Of a stretch of 64,000 bases of DNA, positions 38,772 through 61,665 are shown piece after piece. Source of the stretch: Actinomycetota bacterium (GTDB lineage Bacteria; Actinomycetota; JAHEXW01); assembly GCA_025355855.1 (NCBI GenBank), contig JANXYU010000003.1, positions 88,713 through 152,712 of the forward strand, in the 5' to 3' direction. A model generated the notes under the pieces. The model searched no databases. It had not been told where the DNA came from and saw nothing but the letters and a program-made list of their open reading frames with translations. Numbering within the stretch: the stretch's first letter is position 1; every line of letters starts with the position of its first letter. The translations under genes were made by a program, and so were the position numbers.

Positions 38772-39503
38772 TTGAATGGTCGGCCTGGTAATGTTAATTA
38801 TGAGGAGAACAACCGCATTGGGGGAATCGTGGCGAACCGAAAGAAAACAATAACAATTCTGGCAGCAGTCTTGGGGGTAATTCTCGCGATGCTCGTGGCT
38901 GGCGAGGGTGTGTATCTGGTAGTATCCGGCGAGAACAAGGCTCAAATAAACACGCTCAACAAACGTCTGGCCAATCTGGAGAGCCAACAGGCCGCGAAGG
39001 CGAAGAGCGCGGCCCAAAAAGCCGCGGCACAGTCCGCAGATCCCTACGCCGGTTGGCAAACTTACGAGAATACGACTGCCGGTTACACGCTGCGCTATCC
39101 CTCCGACTGGACCTTTGCGGAAACCTTAACGTCAGACGCTGGAGCCGCCAACTATGTCACTTTTTCCAGCGCCGGCAAAAAATACAGAGTCGCGTTCGGC
39201 TTGCGACCGGCGGGCTCGGATACCATCATTTCCGGCCGTACGGGCCTGGGACAGGGCGAAACTGTGGTTGACGGAACGATTCAGGTTCTGGGACAAACGG
39301 TTGGTAAGGCTTATCACGTCAACGGCGGCCACACGCTTGTGGTTTTTTATGGTGCCGGACTGGCCGCCAATTTTGTGGTAAACGACAACGATATCAACGC
39401 GGAATTAGACGCGCCCGGACTTACTGCAGGCAAAACGGATCTGCGCGGAACCACTGAGGAGGACATCGCAGACAAGATCGTGTCCTCGCTGGCGCTGCAA
39501 TAG
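38772..39503 (+). CDS. membrane-anchored paralog 3
   Basis: ...DPYAGWQTYENTTAGYTLRYPSDWT...GRTGLGQGE...NAELDAPGL...; closely similar to 35357..36031. The start may be the internal GTG (VANRKKTIT). Confidence 0.5.
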   Translation: MNGRPGNVNYEENNRIGGIVANRKKTITILAAVLGVILAMLVAGEGVYLVVSGENKAQINTLNKRLANLESQQAAKAKSAAQKAAAQSADPYAGWQTYENTTAGYTLRYPSDWTFAETLTSDAGAANYVTFSSAGKKYRVAFGLRPAGSDTIISGRTGLGQGETVVDGTIQVLGQTVGKAYHVNGGHTLVVFYGAGLAANFVVNDNDINAELDAPGLTAGKTDLRGTTEEDIADKIVSSLALQ

Positions 39504-40102: not shown

Positions 40103-40579
40103 ATGATTAATTGGAAGAACTGCTGGAAGATAACGATTTTCGCGGGTTTGTTATTGGCGGCTCTGCCGCTACTGGCCGGGTGCGGCCTGACCACAGCGCC
40201 ACGCGGCGATGTGTCGACGCCGGCCAAGGCTCTCCTGGGACACTGGCAAGTCAAAGACGCGGGTACGACGACAAGCGACGCAGATGGTTTCTATTTCGAC
40301 GGGAAAACCGTCTACTACCGTGAGGGAACCGGAGAGACGTCGGTCACCAATCAATATCAAAATACCTACCGGGCCATAGATTCGGCGCTCGAGCCGTTCA
40401 GTATTACCATCGAGTATCAATACCAGGACTTCGTAACCGGTCAGCAGATGACGGCTCGTAAGGAGATCGTCTTCGACAGCGACAAAACCCAGTTCACATT
40501 CAACAACAACACCGACACCCGGCAAGCAAAGGAAGGACTGGGCCCCTACACCTACGTCGGCCCGGAAACGAAACCCTGA
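40103..40579 (+). CDS. lipoprotein
   Basis: Lipobox LLAGCG after a TM-like signal. Confidence 0.5.
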   Translation: MINWKNCWKITIFAGLLLAALPLLAGCGLTTAPRGDVSTPAKALLGHWQVKDAGTTTSDADGFYFDGKTVYYREGTGETSVTNQYQNTYRAIDSALEPFSITIEYQYQDFVTGQQMTARKEIVFDSDKTQFTFNNNTDTRQAKEGLGPYTYVGPETKP

Positions 40580-40843: not shown

Positions 40844-43564
40844 TCACTTTTGCGATATCTTCGCGGCTGCGACCTTTAGCTCCGGGATCTTCGCTACCGG
40901 ATCTAACGCCGGATTCGTGACCGCATTGGCCGCCGCCTCCGCGTAGTGGAACGGCATATATATAACCCCAACCGGCACATCCTCCGTTAGCCGCGCCTTC
41001 GCCGTCACGCTGCCGCGCCTCGTCGTAACCGTCACCGACCGCTTGTTCTTCACCCCGTACTTCTTCGCGTCAGCCGGATTGATGTCGACCCTGGCCTCCG
41101 GTTCGATCTCGTTTAAGCCGTCGACCTTCCTGGTCATCGTGCCTGTGTGCCATTGAGCCAGGTAGCGACCGGTGGTCAAGATTAGCGGATACTTGGCGTC
41201 TGTGACTTCCGCAGGCGGTTTGTAATCGATGGCGTGGAATTTGCCTTTGCCGCGGGCGAACGTTTCCGTGTGCAGGATTGGCGTGCCCGGATGGCCGGGC
41301 GTCGGGCAGGGCCAGTGAATGCCGCAAACTTCGATCCGATGATGGCTGATGCCGCCGTACGCGGGTGTGACCGCCGCGATCTCTTCGAAGATGGCAGCCG
41401 ATGAATGGTAGTTCATTTTGTAACCGAACTTGGACGACACCAGACCGATGATCTTCCAATCGCTCAAAGCCTCGCCAGGCGGTTGGATGGCCTTACGGAC
41501 CGGTTGGACGCGCCGTTCGGTGCTGGTGAACGTACCGGACTTCTCCGCGAAGGTCGCGGCCGGCAGGACGACGTCGGCCAGCCGCGCCGTTTCTGTCAAG
41601 AAGATATCCTGGACGACCAGGAAGTCTAGGCCTTTCAGACCGGCGATAATGTGGGCCTGGTCCGGCTCGGACAAAATGGGGTTCTCGCCCATGATGTACA
41701 TGGCGCGAATGCCGCCCTTGGCCGCCGGTGTGCCGGCCGCTCTAGTCATCTCCGTGGCCGTTAACCCGGGTTTTTTCGGCAACTTCCGGCCCCAGGCCGC
41801 CTCAAATGATTTTCGAACACCGACATCGGCGACACTTTGGTAGCCCGGGTAAACGTTCGGCAGGGCTCCCATATCGCAGGCGCCCTGGACGTTGTTCTGG
41901 CCGCGCAGGGGGTTGACGCCCATACCAGGTTGGCCGATGTTCCCGGTCATCATCGCCAGGTTGGCTAGAGTCATGACGTTGTCCACGCCGGTCGTGTGCT
42001 GAGTGATGCCCATGGCGTAGATGATGGTCGCTTTGTCCGCGCCAGCGTAGATCTCCGCCGCGCGAACGATGTCGGCCGCCGGAATGCCGGTGATTGATTC
42101 AACGTAGTCGGGCGTGTATTTTTCGACCATGGCCACGACGGCCGCGAAGCCCTCCGTCCTCTCTTTGATAAACGATTTATCGGCCAGGCCGATATCCAAA
42201 ATGACGTGCATTAAACCATTGATGAGCGCGACGTCGGTGCCCGGTTTCTGAGACAGCCACATGTCGGCGTATTTTACCAACGGGATCCGGCGCGGTTCCG
42301 CCACAATCAAACGGGCGTCTTTGTTCTTTACAGAGTCGATGATGTTCAAGCCCAGAATGGGGTGGGCCTCGGTCGTGTTCGAGCCAATGACCAGAATGAC
42401 GTCAGCCTCCCCGATGTCCTCCAGGGAATTCGTCATCGCCCCGCTGCCAAACGCCGCGGCCAGACCGGCCACCGTTGGGCTGTGTCACAATCGAGCGCAG
42501 TTGTCGATGTTGTTCGTACCGACCCCCGCGCGGGCAAACTTTTGCATCAGGTAATTCTCTTCGTTGGTACATTTGCTGGAGGAAAGGAAGCCGATGGCGT
42601 CGGCCCCGTATTCCTGTTTGGTTCTCTTCAGTCCGGCGGCGACGGCCGCGATGGCTTCGTTCCACGACGCCGGCACCAGCTCCCCGTCCTTGCGTATTAA
42701 TGGGGTGATCAGACGGTCCGGGCTGTTCACGAAACCGTAGCCGAAGCGGCCTTTCACGCACAGGTCGCCCTTGTTGACCGGAGAATCCTCCCGCGAGGTG
42801 ACGCGCACGATGTGCTGGCCGTCGGTTTCCAAGACTATGGCACAGCCAACGCCGCAATACGGACAGGTGGTGACCGTTTTCTTGAGGTCTTTGCTGCGGC
42901 CCCGGTAGCGGCTGGGCTTCTCAGTCAACGCGCCGACGGGGCAGACCGAGACACAGCGCCCGCATTGGACGCATTCGGTTTCCGGTAGGGGACGGTTAAG
43001 GGCGGACGTGACCATCGTGTCAAAGCCGCGTCCCATGTAGTCGATGACCTCGCAGAACTGGAGCTCCTGACACGCCTGAGCGCAGCGGTAACATTTCACG
43101 CATTTTTCGAAATCCCGGACAATGAACGGGTTGGCGGTATCGATGGGATAACGGTTGCGCCGCCCCCGGAAACGGGAATCGGCGACCTGATATTCATAAG
43201 CCAGGTCCTGCAGTTTACAATGTCCGCTCTGTTCGCACGTCAGACAATCGCCGGGGTGATCGGAGAGCAACAGCTCCAGCACCAGTCGGCGGGCGGCCAC
43301 GGCGCGGTCGGTATGGGTCAGCACCCGCATGCCCGATTCGGCGGGACGGGCACAAGCCGCGATCAATGGACGGCCCGGACCCTCGCCCTCCAGCTCGACG
43401 ACGCAAAGACGGCACGCGCCGGTCGGCGTGAGATGCCGGTGGTTGCACAGATGAGGAATATCGACCTTGGCCTTATGGGCGGCTTCCATGATGGACGCGC
43501 CGCGATGAATCTTTACGGGCACGTCGTTAATGAACAGGGAAACTGTATCGGACTTTCTAGCCAC
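40844..43564 (-). CDS. fdhA: selenocysteine-containing formate dehydrogenase catalytic subunit (FdhF/FdhA-like; N-terminal 2Fe-2S/4Fe-4S ferredoxin modules + Mo/W-bis-PGD domain), in-frame UGA at 42487..42485
   Basis: Two track ORFs (42485..43738 and 40844..42472) are in the same frame, separated by TGA + HSPT. The joined sequence ...[30 protein letters not shown] matches the E. coli FdhF Sec140 context NCARV-U-HGPSVAGL. The likely start is GTG 43564 with a GGGAGG RBS, overlapping the NuoF-like stop by 8 nt. Confidence 0.85.
42445..42487 (-). promoter_or_regulatory. bacterial SECIS element directly 3' of the fdhA UGA
   Basis: mRNA UGA CAC AGC CCA ACG GUG GCC GGU CUG GCC GCG; the GCC-GGUCU-GGC hairpin with GGUC apical loop is at the same register as the E. 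coli fdhF SECIS (UGA CAC GGC CCA UCG GUU GCA GGU CUG CAC). Confidence 0.65.
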
Positions 43565-45287
43565 GGTTGGCCTCCCGATTCGCGGGCCGCCGCTTGCAAA
43601 TGCCATGCGGGCATTTCTTGTGTTCGATATGGGCGACGTATTCATCGCGGAAATATCGGATGGTGGACAAGACCGGGTTGGGCGCGTTTTGGCCCAGGCC
43701 GCAGAGAGACGTGTCGCGCACCACGGCCGCCGTCTCAATCAACAGGTCGATGTCTTCAATTTTCCCGTTGCCGCCGGCGATGCGTTCCAAAATCTCCAGC
43801 ATGCGGGTAGTGCCGACGCGGCAGGGGGTGCATTTGCCGCACGATTCGGCCGCCGAAAACGCCAGAAAATAGCGGGCGATATCGACCATACAGGCGGTTT
43901 CGTCGAGAACGATGACGCCGCCGCTGCCCATGATGGCCCCGACTTTGCTCAAGGTGTCGTAGGTCACGGACAGATCCAGAAATTCGGCCGGGATACAGCC
44001 GCCGGACGGGCCGCCCATCTGAACCGCTTTGAATTCCTTACCGTCGATGATGCCGCCACCCAGGTCGAAGATGAGCTCACGCAGGGTGATGCCCATCGGG
44101 ACCTCGACCAGTCCGGTGTTGTTCAGCTTACCAGCCAGGCTGAAGACCTTTGTGCCGCGCGAGGTACCGGAGCCCATGTCGTTGTAGACATCGGCGCCGC
44201 GGCCGATGATAACAGGCACGTTGGCCAGGGTCTCAACGTTATTGATGCAGGTTGGTTGGCCCCAAAGTCCGGCTACCGCCGGATAGGGCGGGCGGGGGCG
44301 GGGTGTGCCGCGTTTGCCCTCCAAACTGGCGATCAGCGCGGTTTCTTCCCCGCAGACGAACGCGCCGGCGCCTTCCTTGACCGTAATGTCGAAGTCGAAG
44401 CCGGAGCCCAAAATGTTCTGGCCGAGCAGGCCATATTTTCGCGCCTGGTCGATGGCCAGGGTGAGATGCTCGACGGCGATGGGATATTCCGCGCGCACAT
44501 AGATGTAGCCTTCGGACGCGCCGATGGCGAAGCCCGCAATGATCATGCCTTCGATGACGGCGTGCGGATCGCCCTCCATGACGCCGCGATCCATAAACGC
44601 GCCGGGGTCGCCCTCGTCGCCATTGCAGATGAGATATTTCGGTTTGGATCTTTCCTTGCGCGCCAGGCGCCACTTCAAAAAGGTCGGGAAACCGGCGCCG
44701 CCGCGGCCGCGCAGGCCGGACGCCTCCAGTTCGTTTATGATGCCGTTGGGGGTCAACCTTATCAGGGCGCGCGCCGCCGCCGCGTAGCCGCCAGTCCGGA
44801 TGTAGGCGTCGAGGGAGCGCGGGTCGACGCGACCAAGGTTGCGCAACACGCTGCGTTCCTGCGCCTTATAGAACGGGACTTCGGCGGCTTGTGTTATCGG
44901 CTGGCCGGTGGCCGGGTCTTTGTAGGCCAGGCGGTTAATGGGTTTTTTGTTTAATATGGTCTTCTGCACTATCTCCGGAACGTCGGCCGGTTTGACCTGG
45001 CCGTAGAAGATGCTGACTGGATCGATCTCGATGACGGGCGCCTGGGCGCAGAAACCGTGGCAGCCTGTTTCAACGACTTCGATGTTCTTGCGCTCGGCCG
45101 CCGGGAGCCTGGCGATTTCTTTGGCGAGCGCCGCGGAGACCGCGTCGGCGCCTGACGCCCGGCAACCGGTCATGCAGACGCGGACCCGCGTCTTATTCGG
45201 GTCGTAAGCCGTCTGCAAACGGTTACGCAAAGCGTTGAGGTCAGTCCGCGTATTTAGTTTTTGCGTGTTCGGTACGTTCTTTGGCAC
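43557..45287 (-). CDS. NuoF/HydB-like NAD(P)H-binding flavoprotein subunit with N-terminal thioredoxin-like [2Fe-2S] and C-terminal 2x[4Fe-4S] (formate dehydrogenase beta / HylB-like)
   Basis: GRGGAGFPT, FMN/NADH motifs, C-terminal CGKCTPCR...CGLGQ; GTG start with AGGAGC RBS. Confidence 0.85.
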   Translation of the reverse strand: MPKNVPNTQKLNTRTDLNALRNRLQTAYDPNKTRVRVCMTGCRASGADAVSAALAKEIARLPAAERKNIEVVETGCHGFCAQAPVIEIDPVSIFYGQVKPADVPEIVQKTILNKKPINRLAYKDPATGQPITQAAEVPFYKAQERSVLRNLGRVDPRSLDAYIRTGGYAAAARALIRLTPNGIINELEASGLRGRGGAGFPTFLKWRLARKERSKPKYLICNGDEGDPGAFMDRGVMEGDPHAVIEGMIIAGFAIGASEGYIYVRAEYPIAVEHLTLAIDQARKYGLLGQNILGSGFDFDITVKEGAGAFVCGEETALIASLEGKRGTPRPRPPYPAVAGLWGQPTCINNVETLANVPVIIGRGADVYNDMGSGTSRGTKVFSLAGKLNNTGLVEVPMGITLRELIFDLGGGIIDGKEFKAVQMGGPSGGCIPAEFLDLSVTYDTLSKVGAIMGSGGVIVLDETACMVDIARYFLAFSAAESCGKCTPCRVGTTRMLEILERIAGGNGKIEDIDLLIETAAVVRDTSLCGLGQNAPNPVLSTIRYFRDEYVAHIEHKKCPHGICKRRPANREANRG

Positions 45288-45690: not shown

Positions 45691-46113
45691 TCACTTGCTC
45701 TTTCTGTACTTATCCAGCACTTCCACAGCCTTCTCCGCCGTTAGCTTCCCGTAATACTCGCCGTCCACCGTCATGACCGGGGCCAGGAAACAAGAGCCAA
45801 GGCAGGCGACGGTGTCGAGCGTGAATAGTCGGTCGGGCGTGGTCTCGCCGGGTTCGATGCCCAGCTCCGTTCGCAACCGCTTCAGCACGTCGGTACCGCC
45901 TTTGACGTGGCAAGCGGTGCCGTCGCAGACGGTGACGCGGTGCTTGCCGACCGGTTTCAGCCGGAACTGGGAATAAAAGGTCGCCACCGAATAGATCTCG
46001 GAGAGCGGCACGCCCAATTCTTTGCTGACTCGCTCAATTTTGGCCGCGGGCAGGTAGCCTTCCTTGGCTTGAACCTTTTGAAGTGTGGTGATCAGCTGCC
46101 CGCGTTCGCTCAC
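45691..46113 (-). CDS. NuoE/HydC-like [2Fe-2S] thioredoxin-fold subunit
   Basis: CDGTACHVKG...CLGSC Cys pattern of the 24-kDa subunit family. Confidence 0.85.
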   Translation of the reverse strand: MSERGQLITTLQKVQAKEGYLPAAKIERVSKELGVPLSEIYSVATFYSQFRLKPVGKHRVTVCDGTACHVKGGTDVLKRLRTELGIEPGETTPDRLFTLDTVACLGSCFLAPVMTVDGEYYGKLTAEKAVEVLDKYRKSK

Positions 46114-46115
46114 AT

Positions 46116-46889
46116 CTAATCCAGGTAAGAGTCGGCGTAGAGGATATTGCCATTAAAGACGTCGACGGTTTTGACCGTGTTCATCAATTCCCTGTCGGTC
46201 GGGTCCATGATCGCCGCGTCCAGACCGAGCGCCATCAGGCTGGATAGCATCGTGCTATCCAGCAGCGTCTTGATTGGCCCGGTTAGACCGTTGGAGGTGT
46301 TGGACAGACCGACAACTGTCTTTAGCGGTGGATCGTTCAGTTGGCGAAACAGCTTGATGGCCTCAAAAACCTGGAGCGCCTGTTCCTGCGCAACCTTGAC
46401 GGGGAGAATCAGGGGGTCGAAGTAGATACGCTCGACGTCAACGCCGTAGCCCATGGCGTTGGTCATGATGTCGACAGCGATCGCGGCGCGTTCGTTGGCG
46501 TCGCGCGGGATGCCGTTCATCATAGTAAGGCCGATGATATCGGCGTCATATTTGGCCGCTAACGGCAGATAGGCTTCCATCTTCTCCGGCAGACCGTTGG
46601 TCGAGTTGATCAGCGCCGTGCCTTTGTGGACCTTGAGCCCCGCTTCGATGGCGGCTGGGTTCATCGAATCCAGGCAGCAACGAATATCCATAGCCTCTTG
46701 GATGGTCTGGACCAGCCAGGCCATGCGCTCCGGCCCGTCTTTGGCCTGACCGATGTTGATGTCCAACATATTGGCGCCGGCGTCGACCTGCGCCTGGGCC
46801 ATAGCCAGAACCGGACCCGCGTCGCGGTCCTTCATGGCCTGCCCGATCTTCGTGTTGATAACGTTTACCTTTTCACCGATTACTAACAT
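46116..46889 (-). CDS. acsE: methyl-tetrahydrofolate:corrinoid iron-sulfur protein methyltransferase (MeTr)
   Basis: Pterin-binding TIM barrel MLVIGEKVNVINTKIGQAMKDRD...MLDINIGQ; 257 aa. Confidence 0.85.
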   Translation of the reverse strand: MLVIGEKVNVINTKIGQAMKDRDAGPVLAMAQAQVDAGANMLDINIGQAKDGPERMAWLVQTIQEAMDIRCCLDSMNPAAIEAGLKVHKGTALINSTNGLPEKMEAYLPLAAKYDADIIGLTMMNGIPRDANERAAIAVDIMTNAMGYGVDVERIYFDPLILPVKVAQEQALQVFEAIKLFRQLNDPPLKTVVGLSNTSNGLTGPIKTLLDSTMLSSLMALGLDAAIMDPTDRELMNTVKTVDVFNGNILYADSYLD

Positions 46890-47017: not shown

Positions 47018-47950
47018 CTACCCCATAGGCCTTGGCAGAAGACCGGCGGCCTTGACGATATCCGGCACCGCTTCTTCCCATTCTATGGCCATGACGTGTA
47101 CCCCGGCGATGCCGGGAATCGTTTTCATCTTCTCTATCAGCTCGACCGCGATGGCGATGCCTTCCTCTTTGGGCTCTCGCCCCTCATCTTTGGCCGCTGT
47201 CATCCGCGCGATATATTCATCAGGCACATCCATACCGGGTACGTTGTTTTTCATATACTTGGCCATACCCGCGCTCTTCAACGGAGATATGCCGGCCATA
47301 ATGTAGACTTTTTTGTCTAAGCCCAGCGCTCGGACCTCTTCCATCCACTTCTCAAACTTCGGCACGTTGTAGACGATCTGGGTCTGAATGAATTGGGCCC
47401 CGGCCGCGACTTTCTTGGCCAAACGCCTGGCGCGCAGCTCGAATGGATCCGCGAACGGATTCTCCGCCGCGCCGATGAATAAGTCGGGTGCGACCGCCAT
47501 TTCCTGCCCGCCCAGCAATTTCTTATCATCCCGCATGGCTTTCACCATTTGCAGCAGCTGGATAGAGTCGAGGTCCCAGACGCCCTTGGCCTGGGGATGA
47601 TCGCCGAATTTCTGGTGGTCGCCGGTCAGGCAGAGGAGGTTCTTCGCGCCCAGCGCCGCCGCGCCCAGAATATCGGCCTGCATCGCCAGCCGGTTACGGT
47701 CGCGGCAGGTCATCTGGACAACCGGCTCCAAACCCTCATCTATCAGGAGCTTTGCCGCCGCGATGCTGGACATCCGCACGATAGCGGTCTGGTTATCGGT
47801 GATATTGACCGCGTCGGATTGGCCTTTTAATAATTTGGCTTTCTCGATGACAACCGAGGCGTCGGCGTCCCGGGGCGGACCCAGCTCTGACGTCACGGCA
47901 AATTTGCCTGATTCTAAGACCCTTTGTAAATTACTCAAGGTAAACCTCAC
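47018..47950 (-). CDS. metF: 5,10-methylenetetrahydrofolate reductase
   Basis: MRFTLSNLQRVLESGKFAVTSELGPP...; 310 aa MTHFR TIM barrel. Confidence 0.85.
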   Translation of the reverse strand: MRFTLSNLQRVLESGKFAVTSELGPPRDADASVVIEKAKLLKGQSDAVNITDNQTAIVRMSSIAAAKLLIDEGLEPVVQMTCRDRNRLAMQADILGAAALGAKNLLCLTGDHQKFGDHPQAKGVWDLDSIQLLQMVKAMRDDKKLLGGQEMAVAPDLFIGAAENPFADPFELRARRLAKKVAAGAQFIQTQIVYNVPKFEKWMEEVRALGLDKKVYIMAGISPLKSAGMAKYMKNNVPGMDVPDEYIARMTAAKDEGREPKEEGIAIAVELIEKMKTIPGIAGVHVMAIEWEEAVPDIVKAAGLLPRPMG

Positions 47951-48072: not shown

Positions 48073-48735
48073 CTATTTACTTTCTAGCCTTCTGGGTCCG
48101 CCGTGCCAAGATGGACGCCAGTCGCGCGCCGTTGTGACCTCGTCCCATGTCGCACCCAATTTAAGTTCGTTCAGTTTGTCGAAGATCAGTTGCCAGCCGC
48201 AACCGATGTCCGGCGAGACCTCGCATTTGCCGTTGACCGACCCGCCGCAGGGGCCGTTCAACATCGACTTGGAGCAGCGGACAATGGGGCAGATACCGCC
48301 GGTCTCTCCCAGAATGCAATCGCCGCAGGCGCCGCAATATTCGATGAACAGCCGGTCGGGTGAGTGGCTCCCGAGCATCATCGTGTTGACGCCGGGCAGA
48401 ACCCGTTTGCCCGGAAACTCGGCCGCTAGGGTCTGGACCCCGACCCCGCACGACAGAGAGAGCACGGCATCCGCCGCCTTGACCGCGTCGGCCATCTCTC
48501 GCGTATACTCCGGCTCGCATTGACGCAGCGGCGTGAGCTGGGTAATTTCTAGAGTCCAGCCGTCTGATGTGGCTTTCAGTTCCAAGGCCGCCGTCAGTTC
48601 GGCGACTTCCTTCTCGCCACCGGCGAAGGAGATGGTGACACAGGTGCCGCAGCCGCCGAGCAATAATTTCTTGACGTCATTGGCGACGATCATGGCATAT
48701 ATTTCGTCTATCGGTTTGCGTTGTCCGACGATCAT
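48073..48735 (-). CDS. metV: MetV (Cys-rich MTHFR-associated small subunit)
   Basis: 220 aa with clustered Cys (CGTC, CGVGV, CGACGDCILGETGGICPIVRC...CGGSVNGKC); directly upstream of metF in the direction of transcription. Confidence 0.7.
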   Translation of the reverse strand: MIVGQRKPIDEIYAMIVANDVKKLLLGGCGTCVTISFAGGEKEVAELTAALELKATSDGWTLEITQLTPLRQCEPEYTREMADAVKAADAVLSLSCGVGVQTLAAEFPGKRVLPGVNTMMLGSHSPDRLFIEYCGACGDCILGETGGICPIVRCSKSMLNGPCGGSVNGKCEVSPDIGCGWQLIFDKLNELKLGATWDEVTTARDWRPSWHGGPRRLESK

Positions 48736-48742: not shown

Positions 48743-50665
48743 TCACTCCTTGATGGCGATCATGGCCGGTTCGAGACCCAGTTCGGTAAGTGTGGCTTGG
48801 ACGGATGCGACGCGGGCGATCGTCCGGTCGCGGGCAGTGCCGAAGAAACAACCTTCCTCGGGACACAGCGACACGTTCACCTTAGCCGCGCCGGCCCGCA
48901 GTGCTTCCAGCATCAATAGTTCGCTGACCTGACCGATACACATCGCGGGGACAATCGTGTGACCTTGCGGGAGCTCGTCAGCATCGTTATAAAGACGGTT
49001 CATGCAGTAGAAATCGACCTGTTTCGCGGCCGCCGCGGCGGCAACGGCCTCGTCAAGCAGACGTTCCTCTTGACCGCGCCGGAGTGTAATGGCGCCGGCC
49101 GGACATTCGGTGGCGCACAGACCGCACGCCTGGCATTCCGCTGTATCAATGACAGCGACATTGTCGGCGCCGATCTTCGGAATCTCAAAAGGACAGACGC
49201 GCACGCACGTTAAACAGGCAATACATTTTTCCGGGTCAACTACCGCGCCGGACAGGCAAGCCATGCAGCGCAAACCCTCACGCGCCGCCTCGACCTCTGT
49301 TAAACCCGGCTCGAACAGCTCGAAGTCCCGGACGCGATCGGCGGACGGGCGCGTCATGCCGGTGCGGCGCTGGCGGGCCGGCACGAGCGGACGCATCCGC
49401 TCGGGCAAGTCGGCTAACACGGCCGGCTCGTAAACGGCAGCCGGTTTGCCGGTTAGAAACGCGGCGACGGCCGCGGCGACAACATGGCCGTTCTGTACCG
49501 CACCGATGGCGCTCCCTGGCCCGGTCGCGAACTCCCCTGCCATGAAGACATCCCGCGGTTGTTCTTTCGTTATGTCAACTTCAGCGCTACGTAGCGCTGA
49601 AGTGTCCCGGCCTTGGCCGATAGAGACAATAACGGTCTCACCGGCTACTGTCAAGAATTTGTCGGGGACGAATTGCGGGTCGAAACGGCCTTCTTCGTTG
49701 AATACGCGTGACACGGCCTGACAGGTAAGACCCTCGACCGAGGCGCCGGAGCTGACTAGTTTTGATGGACCGAGGCAGCAGTTCAGGTTGACACCTTCGG
49801 CGGCCGCCTCTTCGATCTCCCAATCATGCGCTGGCATTTTATCGCGCGACTCCAGGCAAACCAGGTTTACCTCCTTGGCGCCCAACCGGACAGCGGTCCG
49901 GGCAACGTCAATGGCAACGTTGCCGCCGCCGACCACGATGACCCTACTTTTGAGCGCCGGCGGATTCCCCGCCTTGACGGCTTTCAAAAACGGGATCGCG
50001 GTGTAGACGTTATCGCCTTCTGTCGGGAAAACGGGCAGGCTGCGGGAAAAAGGCAAGCCGGTCGCGATAATGACTCCGTCATTATCGGCTCTTAATTCGT
50101 CGATACTAAAATCTTTGCCAAGCTCTTGACCATATTTGATTTTAACCCCGGTCGCAGCGACTTCATTGATATCACAGTCAAGTGCCGTGTCTGGGAGGCG
50201 ATAGTTTGGGATGGTAAGGCGAAGCATACCGCCGGCTTTGGGCTCGCGTTCGAAAACGGTGACCTTGTGGCCGGCCGCGACCAGGTCTTGGGCGGCGGTA
50301 AGGCCCGCGGGCCCGGCCCCGATGATCGCGATACGTTTGGCCTCTCCACCCAGATTCCTTCTTTGCATGTGGAACTGTCCGTTCGACGCTGACTCAGGAT
50401 CTGGCCCGCAGGCTTCGCCGAATGCCGCTGCGGCTCGTTTAAGTTCCATGATGGAGATCGGCTGGTCGACTGAGGCGCGGCGGCAGTTCTGCTCGCACGG
50501 GCGGAAGCAGATATAGCCGCAGCTATTGGAGAATGGATTGGTCAGGCGCGCGACGTCGTAGGCTTCGGTGAAACGGCCGAGCGCCGTCAGGGCCACGTAG
50601 CCCTGAACGTCGGTAAATGCCGGACAAGCCGCCTGACACGGCGGCACAAAATCACGCATAAACAC
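48743..50665 (-). CDS. GltD/NfnB-like FAD-NAD(P) flavoprotein fused to a 2x[4Fe-4S] ferredoxin and an MvhD/FlpD-like domain (MetFV-associated electron-transfer subunit)
   Basis: N-terminal FVPPCQAACPAFTDVQGY...CGYICFRPCEQNC, Rossmann motifs IAIIGAGPAGL and VIVVGGGNVAID, then CIACLTCVRVCPF/CQACGLCATECP and a Cys-rich tail. Confidence 0.6.
   Translation of the reverse strand: MFMRDFVPPCQAACPAFTDVQGYVALTALGRFTEAYDVARLTNPFSNSCGYICFRPCEQNCRRASVDQPISIMELKRAAAAFGEACGPDPESASNGQFHMQRRNLGGEAKRIAIIGAGPAGLTAAQDLVAAGHKVTVFEREPKAGGMLRLTIPNYRLPDTALDCDINEVAATGVKIKYGQELGKDFSIDELRADNDGVIIATGLPFSRSLPVFPTEGDNVYTAIPFLKAVKAGNPPALKSRVIVVGGGNVAIDVARTAVRLGAKEVNLVCLESRDKMPAHDWEIEEAAAEGVNLNCCLGPSKLVSSGASVEGLTCQAVSRVFNEEGRFDPQFVPDKFLTVAGETVIVSIGQGRDTSALRSAEVDITKEQPRDVFMAGEFATGPGSAIGAVQNGHVVAAAVAAFLTGKPAAVYEPAVLADLPERMRPLVPARQRRTGMTRPSADRVRDFELFEPGLTEVEAAREGLRCMACLSGAVVDPEKCIACLTCVRVCPFEIPKIGADNVAVIDTAECQACGLCATECPAGAITLRRGQEERLLDEAVAAAAAAKQVDFYCMNRLYNDADELPQGHTIVPAMCIGQVSELLMLEALRAGAAKVNVSLCPEEGCFFGTARDRTIARVASVQATLTELGLEPAMIAIKE
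49578..49601. repeat. perfect 24-bp palindrome CTTCAGCGCTACGTAGCGCTGAAG embedded in-frame in the 48743..50665 CDS (encodes TSALRSAE)
   Basis: Identical to the intergenic palindrome at 10717..10740. Confidence 0.85.
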
Positions 50666-50727: not shown

Positions 50728-52077
50728 CTACGACGCCCAGGTTTTTAGGAACGGTGGGATGTCGGCTGCTTCGCGCGGCCCGACCTCTACATTCCAGCCT
50801 TCCAGTTCGTCTTCCAGCTCGCCGCTCATCGTGGCCAAATAGCCCGGGATGACCAGCTTGCGATGCTTAACCTGCTCTTCGATGCCGACGCCCTTGATAA
50901 ACGGGACAATCTTTTCAGGCACGAACTTGCCGGCCGCCCAGCTGGTCATGACAGACAAGCCTTCCGTGTCCATGACGCACAGCCAGGCCGGGACGCGGCT
51001 GGCCTCGACCTCGCCCGACACGATGAAATAGGTCAGGCTGAAATTGGAGGTGATAAGCACCGGCGAATCCGCCGTCGGGTTGCCGATCGGGTATATGCCC
51101 GGCTTAACCTGCATCGGCCGCTGGGGATCGGTGTAAATATTCTGCCGCAGCACGTACAGCGGCAGGGCGCGCGCGGCGTCCAAATCGCTCAGCATGATAA
51201 CGCTACCGTACTTGCCGACATAAAGTCCGGCGTAGACGGCTTCCATCATTTTGTCGTCCGTTTCCTCATTCGGGAAGACAATAATCGGGAAACCGAGTTC
51301 TTTGACCTTTTTGTTCAGCGCAGCGCGGCGGATGTAGACCAGCCGTTCTAGAGTATCCTTGGGGTTACGCGTACCGGGATCCAGAACAATGTCCTTAACG
51401 CCGGCGGCCATGATCTTTTTGACCAGGTCGACCAACGCGTCCAAGTCGCCGGTGCCGCAAACAGCGAGCGGCGCCTTGTGGGCCAGTGCGAGGGCCGCCA
51501 TCGCTTCGTAGTTAGCCGCGGTCGCCGCGTAAATCAGCGGCGCGGTCTCGCCAGCCGCCTTCAGGCCCGCTTCCATTTCCGCTGGGTCGCCGCACATTAA
51601 GACCATAGGCTGCGTTGTCGCCGCTTTGACTTTTTCAATTAGCGCGACAAATTTCGCGGTGTCGCCGGATAAAGATTTCACGCCGACCAAGCCGGCTTTC
51701 AAGTCTTGTTCGACCCGGACGAACCGGCTTTCGTTAGTCTGTTTGAGCAGCCCGTCGACGGTCGCCGCGTCCATGCCGTCATCGATGACAGCCGCGAAGA
51801 CGCACGGGTTGAAGAATGTCTTCTCGTGACGGTAGAGCACCAGCTCCCCGCCGACCTTGACCGCGTCATCGCCCACGCCGATGGTGACGGCGCGAATCGG
51901 CGGCGCGGACGCCTCGCTCAAAGCCGAGGCCGCGTCCTCCGACAAATGCGGACAACCAGCCAGTTCCGCTTGGCCGGCCGCGATCTTCATCGCGAAAGCC
52001 AGGCAGGTCGGTACGCCGCAGTCCCCGCAGTTGGTCTTGGGCAGTTGTTTGAAAATATCTATTCCGGTTAAAGCCAT
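50728..52077 (-). CDS. acsC: corrinoid iron-sulfur protein large subunit (CFeSP gamma)
   Basis: MALTGIDIFKQLPKTNCGDCGVPTCLAFAMKIA; 449 aa. Confidence 0.9.
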   Translation of the reverse strand: MALTGIDIFKQLPKTNCGDCGVPTCLAFAMKIAAGQAELAGCPHLSEDAASALSEASAPPIRAVTIGVGDDAVKVGGELVLYRHEKTFFNPCVFAAVIDDGMDAATVDGLLKQTNESRFVRVEQDLKAGLVGVKSLSGDTAKFVALIEKVKAATTQPMVLMCGDPAEMEAGLKAAGETAPLIYAATAANYEAMAALALAHKAPLAVCGTGDLDALVDLVKKIMAAGVKDIVLDPGTRNPKDTLERLVYIRRAALNKKVKELGFPIIVFPNEETDDKMMEAVYAGLYVGKYGSVIMLSDLDAARALPLYVLRQNIYTDPQRPMQVKPGIYPIGNPTADSPVLITSNFSLTYFIVSGEVEASRVPAWLCVMDTEGLSVMTSWAAGKFVPEKIVPFIKGVGIEEQVKHRKLVIPGYLATMSGELEDELEGWNVEVGPREAADIPPFLKTWAS

Positions 52078-52165: not shown

Positions 52166-54358
52166 TTAGCCAAGTAGTGAATCCATTTCGAGCGCCGGGT
52201 GACCGACCTTGGCCATATACTCCATGACCTCTTCTTCGGTCGTCCCGATTGTCTCATCGGCGATCATGTCGACAAAGTCCGGCAGGCCGAGCGCTTCGCT
52301 ACGCTTCTTAAGCTGGCCGGCCAATGCTTCCTTTAGTTCCTTGGGCATCCAGACGATGCGCTTGAAACCACCTTCGGCGGCGATGAATTTCCCGCTCGTA
52401 ATGTACTGCCGACCCACTCCCAAAAATCCGGGAGTCTGCGCGCCGCCGCCGACCGAGCCGGCCAGGCTGGAGAACTTCATGCCCACCGGGGTCTCGCCGG
52501 TATGCTCGCGGTTAACCACCATGACGCCGTTGGCGATGGGCAGAATGGCCACGACACACTCGAAGCAACCGCAGCTGGTCTCGGGATCCTCCATTATGGA
52601 GTAGGCGTTGACCTGCTGGACACTGTTGTTTGATTTAGCCCGCACTAGTTCGTTGACGCCGACCCACTGACCGCGGCGTTCGTCGATGGTCTCGCCCTTG
52701 ATGATCGGCTGGTTGGCGCCGGTCGGATTGATCTCGTGCGCCGCCTTCGCGTCTAACCAGTTATACGCGCCGCACAAACCCAGCCGCTCCGGCGAAATCA
52801 CGCAGACATGGTTCGGCGCGAAGCTCTGGCAGAGCGTGCAGGAATAGAAGGTGTCAACGCTCTCGTCGATTAAGCCGGCGACCCGTTCGTCACGTGCGAT
52901 AAAAGCCGCGCGCGCTTCCTCCAGGACTTCCTTCATCTTGTCAGCGTCGGTATAGAGCTTGATTTGGATCTTGTCGACGATGGCCGGGAAGTCGTCCATT
53001 AGCTTGGCCTTTAGAATCTCTCCGAAGTGCTCGATTTTGAAGCCCTTTTCATGGGCGCTTTTGCTGATGCGCATCCAGTTCATATCGCGCTGGCCCATAT
53101 GCCAGATGCCTTCGGCGCCGTTGACTAGGTGGTGCAGCTGGCGCTCCAGAACAGGCTCAAAGTCGGACTGCATCTTCCGTCCGGCGACCTCGATCAATAT
53201 ACCCAACGGGTAGGCCTTGCCCTCTTCCATCTGGTCGATCTCCGGCCCGATAACCTCGATCTTTCCATTGTCGATATCGTCCATATCGCGCATGCGCAAA
53301 TACTCAAACGCAGGCGACTTCTGTCCGCCGAACTCGACAAACATGGCTTCCTTGCGGATGCGTTCACCCTCGAAGGCGGAGCCGAACGACACCGGGATCG
53401 GGATTTTGGTGATTTTAATCTTTATGCCGCGCACCTCGACCGCCGTGTCGACGATCTTGTCCAGCGGCACATTAGACACAACGTGTTCATAGGTCGTGAT
53501 ACCGGTCGGCAGAATCTGCGGGATATCGGTGTTGGCGATGACCGGGAAGCCGAAGTTGATGGCGCCCGCGGCTGTGGCATATTTCTCATCGTCTACGTCG
53601 CCCAAGGCGATGACGAAAGCAAACACACGATTTTTGTTGTACATTAGGATCTCGCGAGCTTCCTTCATTCCGCCCGGAGTAATACCGCCGAAGGTCATAG
53701 CGGCTCGCGCGGCGACGCCCAGCGCGTATACCGCCGCCGAGATGTCCCTGCCGAACGGCACTAAATAGACGTCCCAGCCCATCTCGACGCCGGCTTCGTT
53801 TAACTGGTCGGCCATGGTTTTACCGTCCGTCTCGCCCGCCATGAACAGCAAAATGTTGCGTTCGCGCAGTTCGGTCGCTAGTTTTACAGCTTCCTCAGTG
53901 GTCGGCGCGGCGCCGACAACGGCGGCGAAACCCGGCATGGACCCGTCAACGAGCTTGATGCCTTGGGTCCGGACAATAACGTCGTCGGTCGCGCCCAGCC
54001 AGATACCTTCAACGGGGTTGGGTCCCATGACGTATTTCATGGCTTCGATGATTTCCTCGCTCAACAGCGCCGCGATACCTGAGTCCAGCGTGTTGCCCAG
54101 ATAAGGCAGCCAAGCGTCCTCAGCCGGGATGTCCGGCAACATCGATTTGGCTTTTGCCAGGACCGGCTGGATGTCACCCAACGTTTTAACCTTGATGGCC
54201 AGCAGCGCATAGGCGACCGGCAGATAATAAGCGGTGTCCGGAAAAGATACAGGTTGGTCCGCGCCTTTGGCTGCCAGCGCCGCGTTGTAGGCGGCTTCCG
54301 CTTTGTTATAGAGAGAGTGCGCCCCGCGGATAGCGGACGAGGCAATCAGTTTTGACAT
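52166..54358 (-). CDS. acsB: acetyl-CoA synthase (A-cluster subunit)
   Basis: 730 aa; SCTLCQSFAPNHVCVISPERLGLCGAYNWLD and CGCFEC Ni-Ni-FeS ligand motifs. Confidence 0.9.
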   Translation of the reverse strand: MSKLIASSAIRGAHSLYNKAEAAYNAALAAKGADQPVSFPDTAYYLPVAYALLAIKVKTLGDIQPVLAKAKSMLPDIPAEDAWLPYLGNTLDSGIAALLSEEIIEAMKYVMGPNPVEGIWLGATDDVIVRTQGIKLVDGSMPGFAAVVGAAPTTEEAVKLATELRERNILLFMAGETDGKTMADQLNEAGVEMGWDVYLVPFGRDISAAVYALGVAARAAMTFGGITPGGMKEAREILMYNKNRVFAFVIALGDVDDEKYATAAGAINFGFPVIANTDIPQILPTGITTYEHVVSNVPLDKIVDTAVEVRGIKIKITKIPIPVSFGSAFEGERIRKEAMFVEFGGQKSPAFEYLRMRDMDDIDNGKIEVIGPEIDQMEEGKAYPLGILIEVAGRKMQSDFEPVLERQLHHLVNGAEGIWHMGQRDMNWMRISKSAHEKGFKIEHFGEILKAKLMDDFPAIVDKIQIKLYTDADKMKEVLEEARAAFIARDERVAGLIDESVDTFYSCTLCQSFAPNHVCVISPERLGLCGAYNWLDAKAAHEINPTGANQPIIKGETIDERRGQWVGVNELVRAKSNNSVQQVNAYSIMEDPETSCGCFECVVAILPIANGVMVVNREHTGETPVGMKFSSLAGSVGGGAQTPGFLGVGRQYITSGKFIAAEGGFKRIVWMPKELKEALAGQLKKRSEALGLPDFVDMIADETIGTTEEEVMEYMAKVGHPALEMDSLLG

Positions 54359-54403: not shown

Positions 54404-55348
54404 TTAGTTTGTAGCGCCGGTTAGGGCGGCGACAAATTGCCGCGTCAGCTCGACCGCTTTCGGGTGCCGCATGACCAGGATGTTGGAGCCGGCCATGATC
54501 AGCGCGGTCGCCGTCAGTGCCTCCCATAAAACACCCCTGGTCTCCGCGTCGCCCCACGCGGGTTCGTCGGCTTCCGACGTTTTGACTTCTTTGGCTTTCC
54601 AAACCTCGCGACCGATCTGGTTGATCATCGGCATCTGGGTCATTGAATCATTCTGGGTCATGGCCGCCAAACGCAGCCGCTCCATGACGGAGTAGCAATA
54701 TTCCAGCCCGTAGCCCAGAGCGCCCGTCGTGGGATCGATGATGACCCGTTCGGGGGCCAGACCGAGCTGGGTGATCAGGATGTTCAGCTGTTTGGCGATA
54801 TTGACGTCGATGGGGGAATGGGGCGCCGCCAGGTGGTCGAAACCGAGCGCGGCGGCGGCCACAGTTTTGTAGTTTTCCTCCTCGACCGGACCGATCAAAG
54901 CGCGTTTGCCCTGACAAGCCTCGGCCGCCTTGGGCATCACTTCGGCGTCTTTGTCCGCGTTAGCGGTGCCGTAGACGATCAACGGAATCTTGATGGCGTC
55001 TGCCACGGCTTTCACAATCGGCGCGATGTCCGCCCCGTTGCGGTCGCCGGTCGACGGATTTGTCGAAGCCAGGTTAAGACATATCATGTCCGCCTTGTAT
55101 TCGTCCTGGCACTTCAACGCCCACTTGACTGGGTCGTCCAGGACGTCGGCGTAAGGGGCGATCGCGGCCTCCGGCCAGTCTTCCGGTTTGGTGTCGTAGA
55201 CTTCCAACGCGATGACTGGTTTGTTGGGAGCCGCGCCCTCGAACATGTACAACGGCAAAGAGGTTTCGCCGCCCACCGTTACGGCCGTGTCTCCCAGACC
55301 GATCGTCGCTTCACGTATCTTGCCGTTATATGTTTCCTTTACTTCCAT
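54404..55348 (-). CDS. acsD: corrinoid iron-sulfur protein small subunit (CFeSP delta)
   Basis: 314-aa TIM barrel partner of AcsC; MEVKETYNGKIREATIGLGD... Confidence 0.85.
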   Translation of the reverse strand: MEVKETYNGKIREATIGLGDTAVTVGGETSLPLYMFEGAAPNKPVIALEVYDTKPEDWPEAAIAPYADVLDDPVKWALKCQDEYKADMICLNLASTNPSTGDRNGADIAPIVKAVADAIKIPLIVYGTANADKDAEVMPKAAEACQGKRALIGPVEEENYKTVAAAALGFDHLAAPHSPIDVNIAKQLNILITQLGLAPERVIIDPTTGALGYGLEYCYSVMERLRLAAMTQNDSMTQMPMINQIGREVWKAKEVKTSEADEPAWGDAETRGVLWEALTATALIMAGSNILVMRHPKAVELTRQFVAALTGATN

Positions 55349-55471: not shown

Positions 55472-56323
55472 CTAGCCCGCTGCTCTCTTTGCCGCCTCAA
55501 GAGTATTTACCATCAGCATGGCAATGGTCATGACCCCGACCCCGCCAGGCACAGGCGTGATGGCGCCGACCTTATCGAACACGCCGTCATAGTCGACGTC
55601 TCCGACAACCTTGCCTTCCTCGTTGCGGTTGATGCCGGCGTCCACGACAGCGGCGCCCGCTTTTACCATGTCTGCGGTAATCATTTTCGGCTGTCCGATG
55701 CCAACGACCAAAATGTCTGCCCTACCGGTATGAGCCGCCAGGTCCTTTGTCTTCGAGTGACAGATGGTAACGGTCGCGTTGTTCTGCAGGAGCAGGACCG
55801 CCGCCGGTTTACCGACAATGTTGCTGCGGCCAACGATAACGGCGTCCTTGCCGGCGATCTCCACGCCGCTGCGCTGCAACAGCACAATTATGCCGTGCGG
55901 TGTGCACGGCAGAAAACATTCCTTGCCGATCAACATATTGCCCACGTTGACGGGGGTAAAGCCATCGACATCCTTCTTAACCTCGATAGCGTCGATTACC
56001 TTGTCTTCATCGATGTGCTTGGGCAAAGGCAGCTGAACCAACAGACCGTGGATCTTCGGGTCGTCGTTCAATCGGTAAACCAGACTCAGCAGCTCTTCTT
56101 CTGAGACGTCCGCCGGTAATTCGTGTTTTTCCGAATAGATACCTGTCTCCGCGCAGGCCTTTTCCTTATTCCGGACATAGATGGTGCTGCCGGGATCCTC
56201 GCCGACGATGATAACGGCCAAGCCTGGCGTAATGCCGGACCCCGCCTTTAGCTGTTCAACGCCCGCGGCGACCTCGGCCTTTATTTCAGCCGAAATCTTC
56301 CTACCGTCAATTACTGTGGTCAT
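55472..56323 (-). CDS. folD: bifunctional methylene-THF dehydrogenase/methenyl-THF cyclohydrolase
   Basis: IIVGEDPGSTIYVRNKEKA, LPLPKHIDE, VVGRSNIVGKP. Confidence 0.9.
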   Translation of the reverse strand: MTTVIDGRKISAEIKAEVAAGVEQLKAGSGITPGLAVIIVGEDPGSTIYVRNKEKACAETGIYSEKHELPADVSEEELLSLVYRLNDDPKIHGLLVQLPLPKHIDEDKVIDAIEVKKDVDGFTPVNVGNMLIGKECFLPCTPHGIIVLLQRSGVEIAGKDAVIVGRSNIVGKPAAVLLLQNNATVTICHSKTKDLAAHTGRADILVVGIGQPKMITADMVKAGAAVVDAGINRNEEGKVVGDVDYDGVFDKVGAITPVPGGVGVMTIAMLMVNTLEAAKRAAG

Positions 56324-56331: not shown

Positions 56332-57093
56332 CTATGTGATTCTTTCCAGTATTTCTGCTGCTGCCGCCATGGCCGGGGAGTCGGCCGGCAAATCTACAAA
56401 AGCGCCGCCCGCTATATCCACTGCCTCGACCCCGGCGTCATATGGTACGGTCCCGATAAGCTCCAGGCCTGTCCGCGCGACTGCGTCTTGGACGGCCGGG
56501 CTCAAACCCACAGCCCCCGCTGGCACCCGGCCGATCACCAGATACATCCGGCCGACGTTCATGTCCTCTTCCGAAGCCATCTCCGCGATGCGCCCAGCGG
56601 TCATCACGCCGCGCACCGTCGGGTCCGAACAAACTAACAGGATGTCGGCGCCCCGGCTCGTCCGGCGGGACAAGTGTTCCATTCCCGCCTCGTTGTCCAT
56701 GACGACAAACGGGTAGTTATCAGCCAGCACGTCAATATATTTACGCAGCACCGAATTGACGTAGCAATAGCAGCCGCTGCCTTCCGGCCGCCCCATAACC
56801 AGCAAATCGAAACCGTCGCCCTCGGTCACCGCTTCCTGGACCTTAAGTTCGAGGTATGTTTCTTTCGGCACGCCCGTCGGAATCTGATCGATGTTCTTCC
56901 GGGTAGTTTCCCGCAAGTCGCCGATCGTCGTCTCGGGCACGACGCCCAACGTTTCATGCAGTGTCGCGTTAGCGTCGGCGTCGATGGCCAGCACCGGCTT
57001 CTTCCCCGTCTTAAGCAAATTGGCAATCAATAGTCCGGCCAAGGTCGTCTTGCCCGTACCGCCTTTACCGCTGACGGCGATCTTAACCGTCAC
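56332..57093 (-). CDS. cooC: CODH/ACS nickel-insertion ATPase CooC
   Basis: VKIAVSGKGGTGKTTLAGL; CYC motif GCYCYVNS. Confidence 0.85.
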   Translation of the reverse strand: MTVKIAVSGKGGTGKTTLAGLLIANLLKTGKKPVLAIDADANATLHETLGVVPETTIGDLRETTRKNIDQIPTGVPKETYLELKVQEAVTEGDGFDLLVMGRPEGSGCYCYVNSVLRKYIDVLADNYPFVVMDNEAGMEHLSRRTSRGADILLVCSDPTVRGVMTAGRIAEMASEEDMNVGRMYLVIGRVPAGAVGLSPAVQDAVARTGLELIGTVPYDAGVEAVDIAGGAFVDLPADSPAMAAAAEILERIT

Positions 57094-61642: not shown

Positions 61643-61665
61643 ATGTGGCCAAAGGAGCGGGAATA

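Follow-up and report, generated by a model that had tools for sequence, protein, structure and literature searches.

A GltD-type flavoprotein with a ferredoxin-MvhD tail as the probable electron-input subunit of a MetVF-type methylenetetrahydrofolate reductase

Four types of methylenetetrahydrofolate reductase (MTHFR) have been distinguished, namely MetF alone (type I), MetVF (type II), RnfC2-MetVF (type III) and MetFV-HdrABC-MvhD (type IV) (PMC8760232). MetVF has no nicotinamide site of its own and depends on a donor module, which is RnfC2 in type III and HdrA in type IV (PMC8760232). Here we describe a gene that lies directly upstream of metV-metF in a 64,000-nucleotide (nt) stretch of DNA from an Actinomycetota bacterium (contig JANXYU010000003.1; this whole stretch is referred to as the window, and coordinates are counted from its first letter). 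The gene product joins a GltD-type flavoprotein to a ferredoxin domain and an MvhD-like domain, and is very probably the electron-input subunit of MetVF. A preliminary description of the locus had started from the premise that characterised MTHFR complexes of acetogens are HdrA-based, which is correct for type IV but leaves aside that types I-III also exist (PMC8760232).

The described systems that come closest differ in the part that they share with the window protein. In the type III enzyme of Acetobacterium woodii, a flavoprotein with iron-sulfur (FeS) clusters that is encoded beside metVF provides the NADH site of a soluble, non-bifurcating three-subunit complex (Bertsch et al. 2015, summarised in PMC8760232). 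The type IV enzymes of Moorella thermoacetica and Sporomusa ovata (Mock et al. 2014) are expected to take electrons from NADH, and their metV is directly preceded by the coding sequence for an MvhD module (PMC8760232, PMC9430772). The same adjacency of mvhD and metV is found in Moorella and in Hakuba Actinobacteria, the latter with the gene order hdrA-mvhD-metVF-hdrCB (PMC7325909, PMC5736913). In HdrA, MvhD passes electrons through the C-terminal ferredoxin domain (PMC9012536). Finally, the flavin adenine dinucleotide (FAD) of StnC/NfnA is a non-bifurcating input flavin from which electrons travel down a linear cluster chain, and a Lys cluster ligand is conserved in all NfnABC/Stn enzymes where NfnL/NfnB have Glu (PMC10482914, PMC12018979).

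The gene occupies positions 48743-50659 of the minus strand, as do, within these limits, all of its features given below. The open reading frame (ORF) is listed from a GTG at 50665, the likeliest start being the ATG at 50659, and the 638-residue product is 100% identical to database protein P0001. Matches in Pfam reveal a three-part fusion: a GltD-type flavoprotein with sites for FAD and NAD(P)H comes first, then a ferredoxin domain for two [4Fe-4S] clusters, and last an MvhD-like domain for a [2Fe-2S] cluster; an AlphaFold2 model of the protein reached a pLDDT of 92.2 and a pTM of 0.91. Its stop codon is separated by 7 nt from the start of metV (48073-48735, minus strand), which encodes a 220-residue protein matching DUF5981, the MTHFR C-terminal-like FeS subunit (Pfam, E 2e-31). 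The next gene is metF (47018-47950, minus strand) for the catalytic methylenetetrahydrofolate reductase subunit of 310 residues (Pfam MTHFR, E 7e-44). The central observation of the preliminary description, a flavoprotein-ferredoxin-MvhD fusion gene directly upstream of metV-metF, is thus borne out by the Pfam domains and the 7-nt gap, and the domain models that it had put forward as a check (Pyr_redox_2, Fer4, FlpD/MvhD) were all matched.

The subtype of the flavoprotein module is central to the mechanism. Searched against the PDB, residues 3-468 returned as top matches exclusively the large subunits of Bfu-type transhydrogenases, i.e. NfnABC from Caldicellulosiruptor (9bov_A, E 4e-80), StnABC from Sporomusa ovata (8oh5_C, E 5e-68) and NfnABC from Thermococcus sibiricus (9n5u_A, E 2e-67), with NfnB (4ylf_B, E 2e-41) and GltD (2vdc_G, E 5e-38) at weaker E-values. 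The FAD and NAD(P)H domains comprise residues 108-405 (49445-50338), as delimited by Pyr_redox_2 (residues 111-393, E 4e-22) and by alignments to 9bov_A, 8oh5_C and the NfnB encoded elsewhere in the window. Conservation was counted over an alignment of 117 homologues, in which the FAD motif GAGPAG (114-119) and the NAD(P)H motif GGGNVAID (244-251) are invariant or nearly so and the FAD-site residue R154, the counterpart of NfnB R201, is invariant.

Ahead of these domains, residues 3-80 (50420-50653) form the main part of a GltD-type two-cluster domain with C8, C12, C51, C55, C59 and K74. The Fer4_20 match to this region is partial (residues 8-80, profile positions 30-105), and loss of one cluster was considered as the cause. 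It was rejected, as the absent Cys pair is supplied by a permuted segment: the N-terminal stretch of NfnB that carries the first two Cys (RARNFEEVALGYSEEDALAEAARCLSC) sits behind the flavoprotein domain here, at residues 441-468 (RVRDFELFEPGLTEVEAAREGLRCMAC; 49256-49339), which align to NfnB residues 27-54. When this segment was re-joined ahead of the N-terminus, the Fer4_20 score rose from 46 to 66 bits and the match extended over profile positions 2-105. The partial match is therefore attributed to circular permutation of the cluster domain. StnC and NfnA have the same permutation, since their alignments run on to the RCLEC motif at ~561-566. All 117 homologues keep each of C8, C12, C51, C55, C59, C465, C468 and K74, so that seven Cys and one non-Cys ligand (K74) are present for the two predicted [4Fe-4S] clusters of the module. 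K74 aligns without gaps to StnC K170, a position at which the window NfnB has Glu.

Judged by these residues, the flavoprotein module is of the StnC/NfnA (Bfu) subtype and not NfnB-like in detail. StnC/NfnA (8oh5, 9bov, 9n5u; PMC10482914, PMC12018979) provide the best match to residues 3-468 in sequence and fold, and have in common with them a permuted RCxxC segment, a proximal [4Fe-4S] cluster with a Lys ligand and the FAD/nicotinamide site. Unlike StnC/NfnA, the window protein has no N-terminal [2Fe-2S] and NuoG/Fdh-like domains, by which those subunits dock to a HydBC-like module; in Pfam, matches to Fer2_4, NADH-G_4Fe-4S_3 and Molybdopterin are absent and the protein begins at the GltD module. 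Moreover, its gene is not beside a HydBC-type pair, its nucleotide site reads CLE for YRR (see below), and a ferredoxin-MvhD tail is added. NfnB/NfnL (4ylf, 5jca) have the GltD-type fold, FAD, nicotinamide site, two [4Fe-4S] clusters and FAD-site Arg in common with the window protein, but differ from it in the Glu at the proximal cluster, the N-terminal position of the RCxxC segment, the YRR-type NADPH site and the NfnA partner. Of the earlier label "NfnB/GltD-type", the GltD-type fold consequently stands, whereas K74 in place of Glu and the permuted RCxxC speak against an NfnB-type protein.

A genuine NfnB is nevertheless encoded in the window. The large subunit of the NfnAB pair at 10834-13100, pointed out in the preliminary description as a separate system, matches Thermotoga maritima NfnB (4ylf_B) with E 3e-178. 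The fusion protein was also considered as a second NfnB paralogue that partners the NfnA at 12252-13100; this was rejected, as the fusion protein differs from NfnB in Lys versus Glu, in the permutation and in CLE versus YRR, and synteny speaks against it as well. The neighbours of the fusion gene are acsC and metV, and the window has a single NfnA-like gene (12252-13100), which belongs with the genuine NfnB.

The tail consists of the 2x[4Fe-4S] ferredoxin domain (residues 472-528, 49076-49246; Fer4 and Fer4_10) and the MvhD-like [2Fe-2S] domain (residues 546-638, 48746-49024; FlpD). Two Fer4 motifs were found at residues 475-525 in Pfam, with C479, C482, C485, C489, C509, C512, C515 and C519 as predicted ligands; seven of these eight are invariant among the 117 homologues and C479 is present in 116. 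That the C-terminal domain is MvhD-like, one of the points on which the preliminary description had staked its proposal, is agreed upon by several lines of evidence. The FlpD/MvhD match at residues 564-638 (E 1e-12) scores 48.4 bits against a cut-off of 22.3, MvhD chains are the sole PDB matches of the isolated C-terminus, and a family profile of the tail aligns to the MvhD chains 5odc_D and 8rvu_F over MvhD residues 4-106 (E 3e-17). C552, C574, C599 and C604 are each kept in 110-116 of the 117 homologues.

The same tail profile matches the C-terminal ferredoxin domain of HdrA (E 1.5e-13), and the NCBIfam model of HdrA2, a natural HdrA::MvhD fusion, covers residues 471-635 as one unit (E 3.8e-28). 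Similarity to HdrA is confined to residues 471-546, which correspond to this C-terminal ferredoxin domain (9sfi_A 577-654). The flavoprotein part matches GltD/NfnA-type proteins (E 1e-80 to 1e-38) and gave no match to the HdrA flavin core. The ferredoxin domain starts 11 residues past C468, a ligand of the distal cluster. No NCBIfam model reaches its cut-off for the fusion protein as a whole, the best being "NAD(P)-binding protein" with 406 bits versus 516. The tail alone is found in 483 cluster representatives at 50% identity (E <= 1e-10). Among these, a subgroup of 350-400 residues (e.g. P0125, P0129, P0131) has the ferredoxin-MvhD tail at ~170-350 behind another N-terminal part and is possibly another carrier of the same adaptor.

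Trios of fusion gene, metV (DUF5981) and metF recur in the annotated neighbourhoods of relatives, of which six were inspected with flanks of 8-10 kb. They include an Actinomycetota contig that shares the operon of the window (L081, with L082), a Nitrospirota chromosome with the order folD-fusion-metV-metF and no acs genes nearby (L083), the cultured bacterium Pelotomaculum propionicicum of the Bacillota (L084, with L085), an Armatimonadota chromosome on which the trio stands alone (L086), and a Gaiellales contig that has a nuoF-like gene after acsE (L088). A tblastn search retrieved the same trio from metagenome-assembled genomes of Coriobacteriia, Dehalococcoidales, Chloroflexota and delta-proteobacteria (L004, L005, L013, L048). 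The carriers thereby span about six phyla: Actinomycetota, Nitrospirota, Bacillota, Armatimonadota, Chloroflexota and Desulfobacterota.

For a quantitative estimate, metagenomes were scanned with a profile specific for the tail, which returned 80 loci; a search of genome contigs with the full-length alignment was dominated by generic GltD-like proteins, with at least six full-length loci among the matches listed. The GltD part is fused ahead of the tail in 63 of the 64 metagenome loci that extend far enough upstream. Where at least 1 kb of downstream sequence was available, metV and/or metF adjoin the fusion gene in 54 of 60 loci. In two more (L089, L092) metV follows ~0.9-1.25 kb downstream, the gap in L089 holding one small inserted gene, so that the trio is present in 56/60 informative loci (~93%). 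The fusion is found without metVF at four to five loci (L087 from Chloroflexi, L125, L127, L140, L145). In L127 (3311-5880), the GltD-ferredoxin-MvhD fusion is followed by a DsrC-like ORF with the C-terminus CKMAGLPKPTGCV, a hint that, in organisms reducing sulfate or sulfite, the module can pass electrons to other acceptors. The trio is a conserved, widespread module, and because it occurs without acs genes in Armatimonadota and Nitrospirota, its link is to MetVF rather than to carbon monoxide dehydrogenase/acetyl-CoA synthase (CODH/ACS). Together with the counts given above, this distribution supports the suggestion that MetVF has an input architecture other than HdrABC.

This architecture fits none of the types I-IV and would be a fifth one, because the HdrABC and RnfC2 features are absent and only MetF, MetV and the MvhD element are found. 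The type III enzyme is the closest functional analogue of the mechanism proposed below, yet RnfC2 is an RnfC/NuoF-type flavin mononucleotide (FMN) protein with a MetV-like N-terminus and not homologous to the GltD-type FAD protein described here; no Complex1_51K or RnfC match was obtained for the latter in Pfam, and the likeness is functional only. With type IV it has more parts in common, i.e. MetF, MetV, an MvhD module placed immediately before metV and a C-terminal HdrA-type ferredoxin domain. Unlike type IV, however, it has no thioredoxin-reductase-type flavin core of HdrA, the flavoprotein is of GltD type, and MvhD is fused instead of being a separate subunit. Of the window ORFs scanned (150 residues or more), none encodes an HdrB (CCG-domain) or HdrC-like protein, nor was a CCG-domain (hdrB) or hdrC gene found within 8-10 kb in the six annotated neighbourhoods. 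The search for hdrABC that had been proposed earlier thus gave a negative answer for hdrB and hdrC, at the scale of the window rather than of the whole genome.

NAD(H) is classically preferred over NADP(H) where the second Rossmann beta-strand ends in an acidic residue. In the fusion protein, C268-L269-E270 occupies the position after this strand at which YRR is found in all of the aligned NADPH-binding relatives (9bov_A, 8oh5_C, 4ylf_B, i.e. T. maritima NfnB, and the window NfnB), and CLE is present in 114 of the 117 homologues. As CLE, with its Glu, replaces YRR, the protein is predicted to use NADH, not NADPH, and the earlier suggestion of NADPH as donor is disfavoured.

We therefore consider, with moderate confidence, that the trio constitutes a three-subunit, NADH-dependent, non-bifurcating MTHFR in which a single wire leads from NADH to MetVF. 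The FAD of the GltD-type module would accept a hydride from NADH, and electrons would then pass one by one from the proximal, Lys-ligated [4Fe-4S] cluster (predicted ligands C12, C51, C55 and K74) to the distal [4Fe-4S] cluster (C465, C468, C8 and C59), the assignment of ligands following the pattern of ferredoxin-like domains. From there the path would run over the two [4Fe-4S] clusters of the ferredoxin domain to the MvhD [2Fe-2S] cluster, and on via the FeS clusters of MetV to the flavin of MetF, where methylene-tetrahydrofolate (methylene-THF) would be reduced to methyl-THF; methyl-THF would be oxidised instead when the pathway runs oxidatively. The logic of such an enzyme would be that of RnfC2-MetVF, and its build that of a chimera of a StnC/NfnA-type flavoprotein and the ferredoxin-MvhD tail of HdrA2. 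A single non-bifurcating wire is the most parsimonious arrangement because the flavoprotein is of the non-bifurcating subtype, and a single exit is suggested by the ferredoxin domain starting so closely behind C468 and by the homology of the tail, as a unit, to HdrA2. The domain make-up, the cofactor ligands, the subtype of each module and the conserved linkage of the genes are shown by the data. That the proteins form a complex, prefer NADH, have their clusters in this order and do not bifurcate is read from sequence features and should be taken as prediction.

Several observations weigh against a simple NADH-dependent wire. YRR is kept in three Actinomycetota homologues (P0014, P0018, P0019; alignment positions 268-270); nucleotide specificity thus appears to vary, and the family may hold NADH as well as NADPH variants. 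R154 is conserved in bifurcating and non-bifurcating relatives alike and therefore does not discriminate between the two kinds. The type IV enzyme of Moorella oxidises NADH but is uncoupled from methylene-THF unless an unknown second acceptor takes part (PMC8760232); a NADH site beside MetVF is therefore no guarantee of simple coupling. Moreover, organisms that live near the energetic limit or run the pathway in reverse, such as Pelotomaculum and other syntrophs, would gain from bifurcation or confurcation. Lastly, the negative result on hdrB and hdrC for this genome covers the 64,000-nt window only.

The alternative raised in the preliminary description, a bifurcating or confurcating MTHFR, we regard as unlikely in light of the StnC/NfnA subtype residues. 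With NADH or NADPH as donor, the GltD-type FAD would here split the hydride pair, a doubtful role for this flavin. One electron would take the high-potential branch over the MvhD [2Fe-2S] cluster and MetV to MetF, the other a low-potential branch over the four [4Fe-4S] clusters to free ferredoxin, a division that is improbable to a similar degree. In the reverse direction, likewise a rather unlikely prospect, oxidation of ferredoxin would pull that of methyl-THF with NAD+. The same fold does bifurcate in NfnB, the counterpart of its R201 is invariant in the family, and a plain wire would require fewer than the five clusters present. The difference between methylene-THF (-200 mV) and NADH (-320 mV) leaves energetic room for the reduction of ferredoxin, a coupling that type IV enzymes and syntrophic acetate oxidisers have long been proposed to use (PMC8760232, PMC6295475). 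The carriers include energy-limited syntrophs, e.g. Pelotomaculum propionicicum. Conversely, the Lys in place of Glu and the permutation are hallmarks of the non-bifurcating StnC/NfnA subtype (PMC10482914, PMC12018979), and the ferredoxin-MvhD tail is homologous as a unit to HdrA2, where both domains lie on one path. Neither a second, NfnA-like flavoprotein nor HdrBC is encoded nearby in the window operon or the annotated neighbourhoods, and bifurcation coupled to ferredoxin has never been demonstrated with any MTHFR (PMC8760232). On balance, we retain the single NADH-to-MetVF wire.

A larger, Bfu-like assembly is less probable still. It would comprise the fusion protein, MetVF and the NuoE- and NuoF-like proteins encoded two genes further downstream (45691-46113 and 43557-45287), and a role of the FMN of the NuoF-like protein, rather than the FAD of the GltD module, as the site of NADH oxidation and possibly of bifurcation, as known from StnABC/NfnABC, is just as hard to credit. 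In favour of such an assembly, every one of the closest relatives of the GltD module with a solved structure acts in combination with a HydBC/NuoEF-type module (PMC10482914). Genes of nuoEF type lie in the same operon in the window and in L081, L024 has NuoE and NuoF::GltD directly before metV-metF, and L088 has its nuoF-like gene after acsE. Opposed to this, the nuoEF-like genes of the window are contiguous with a selenocysteine-type fdhA encoding a NuoG-like N-terminus, the standard arrangement of a NAD-linked formate dehydrogenase, and the trio occurs without nearby nuoEF in Nitrospirota, Armatimonadota and Pelotomaculum. The fusion protein is devoid of the NuoG-like domain by which StnC docks to StnAB. 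A C-terminal 2x[4Fe-4S] domain is typical of bifurcating Bfu enzymes, and in Pfam this domain is missing from the NuoF-like protein of the window.

We likewise give little credence to a free-standing oxidoreductase of NAD(P)H:ferredoxin or NAD(P)H:acceptor type whose link to metVF is one of co-regulation alone, or to its possible clients CODH/ACS, corrinoid protein reduction or DsrC, since the loci with fusion but no metVF, including L127 with its DsrC-like gene, and the promiscuity of MvhD and GltD modules as building blocks (PMC2702500, PMC9012536) are set against metV-metF lying directly downstream in ~93% of informative loci from six phyla, some of which carry no further gene of the Wood-Ljungdahl pathway, against the 7-nt gap to metV, and against the need of MetVF, devoid of a nucleotide-binding site, for a donor module (PMC8760232).

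Other input modules with a GltD part are also linked to MetVF. In L016 (7482-14105), L051 (5027-10632) and also L067, an HdrA-like protein of ~1,490 residues with an inserted GltD part is followed by mvhD and metV-metF. These proteins resemble HdrL (HdrA/GltD) of Desulfobacterium autotrophicum, which occurs with MvhD (PMC2702500), and the HdrA-NfnB fusions of the archaeal ANME-1 group (PMC9012536), systems that also combine a GltD/NfnB-like module with MvhD. HdrL-type proteins keep the HdrA core, with two flavin domains in ~1,000-1,500 residues, and a separate MvhD, whereas the fusion protein of the window has no HdrA core and a fused MvhD; HdrA-GltD proteins of ~1,490 residues are a possible precursor of it. 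In L024 (102-5573), a nuoE-like gene and a gene for a 1,065-residue NuoF::GltD fusion precede metV-metF, an arrangement that amounts to a Stn-like module attached to MetVF. Because an MvhD element immediately precedes metV in all MetVF-linked GltD variants except L024, as well as in Moorella and the Hakuba Actinobacteria, MvhD is suggested to be an adaptor that docks on MetV. The HdrL+MvhD and NuoF::GltD variants point to repeated exchange of the MetVF input module, and with the Hakuba gene order in mind, both input solutions occur among Wood-Ljungdahl Actinomycetota.

In the window, the trio is part of a long minus-strand operon with the genes of the complete methyl and carbonyl branches of the Wood-Ljungdahl pathway. 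Read in the direction of transcription, it begins with fhs (59051-60754), a RACo-type corrinoid activase gene (57090-59012), a cooC/acsF-like ATPase gene (56332-57093), folD (55472-56323), acsD (54404-55348), acsB (52166-54358) and acsC (50728-52077). The fusion gene, metV and metF come next, followed by acsE (46116-46889), the nuoE-like and nuoF-like genes and fdhA (40844-43738), all on the minus strand. No cooS/acsA (CODH) gene was seen in this operon or in the rest of the window. At its N-terminus, the NuoF-like protein carries a [2Fe-2S] domain of thioredoxin-like type. Downstream of the nuoE-like and nuoF-like genes, fdhA is interrupted by an in-frame TGA at 42485-42487 within the motif CARL-U-HSPTVAG, an indication that the enzyme is a selenocysteine formate dehydrogenase.

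Some 20 kb away, a second cooC-like ATPase gene (28549-29319) and a cbiM/cbiQ/cbiO-type Ni/Co transporter (25708-27780) are encoded on the minus strand. Three tandem paralogues of PcsB-like peptidoglycan hydrolases, with coiled-coil and NlpC/P60 or M23 domains, are found at 21474-24614 (minus strand), and an amidase with peptidoglycan-binding domains comes after this gene trio (24695-25711). ORFs of 150-325 residues with no Pfam match at E 1e-5 are located at 2621-4647 (plus strand), 34760-37100, 37237-39503, 40103-40579 and 60913-62205.

In the openly searchable full-text literature, subscription-only papers being outside that scope, we found no description of a GltD-ferredoxin-MvhD protein beside metVF. 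The literature covered included genomic work on Hakuba Actinobacteria, deep-sea Chloroflexi, ANME archaea and D. autotrophicum, and on haloalkaline syntrophic acetate oxidisers, Ca. Contubernalis and Ca. Solincola. Within this scope, a MetVF-type MTHFR with the input subunit described here appears to be new. Because the labels of these proteins in databases are generic ("FAD-dependent oxidoreductase", "formate dehydrogenase beta subunit", "hydrogenase iron-sulfur subunit"), metabolic reconstructions of these lineages either give no donor for MTHFR or presume an Hdr complex.

The donor of MetVF, and energy conservation at the very exergonic methylene-THF step, are a long-standing open point of Wood-Ljungdahl bioenergetics. 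The trio described here would add a fifth type of MTHFR that is simple, with three genes, and widespread, and as the cultured Pelotomaculum propionicicum carries it, the question is directly testable. The fusion protein is also a clear case of redox-module shuffling, in which a StnC-type flavoprotein has been combined with an HdrA2-type ferredoxin-MvhD tail. The most probable mechanism is the unspectacular, non-bifurcating one. In the unlikely event that the trio bifurcates, it would be the smallest known flavin-based electron-bifurcating MTHFR, and would give many uncultured Wood-Ljungdahl organisms, and syntrophs, the energy-conserving step in the methyl branch that has long been sought.

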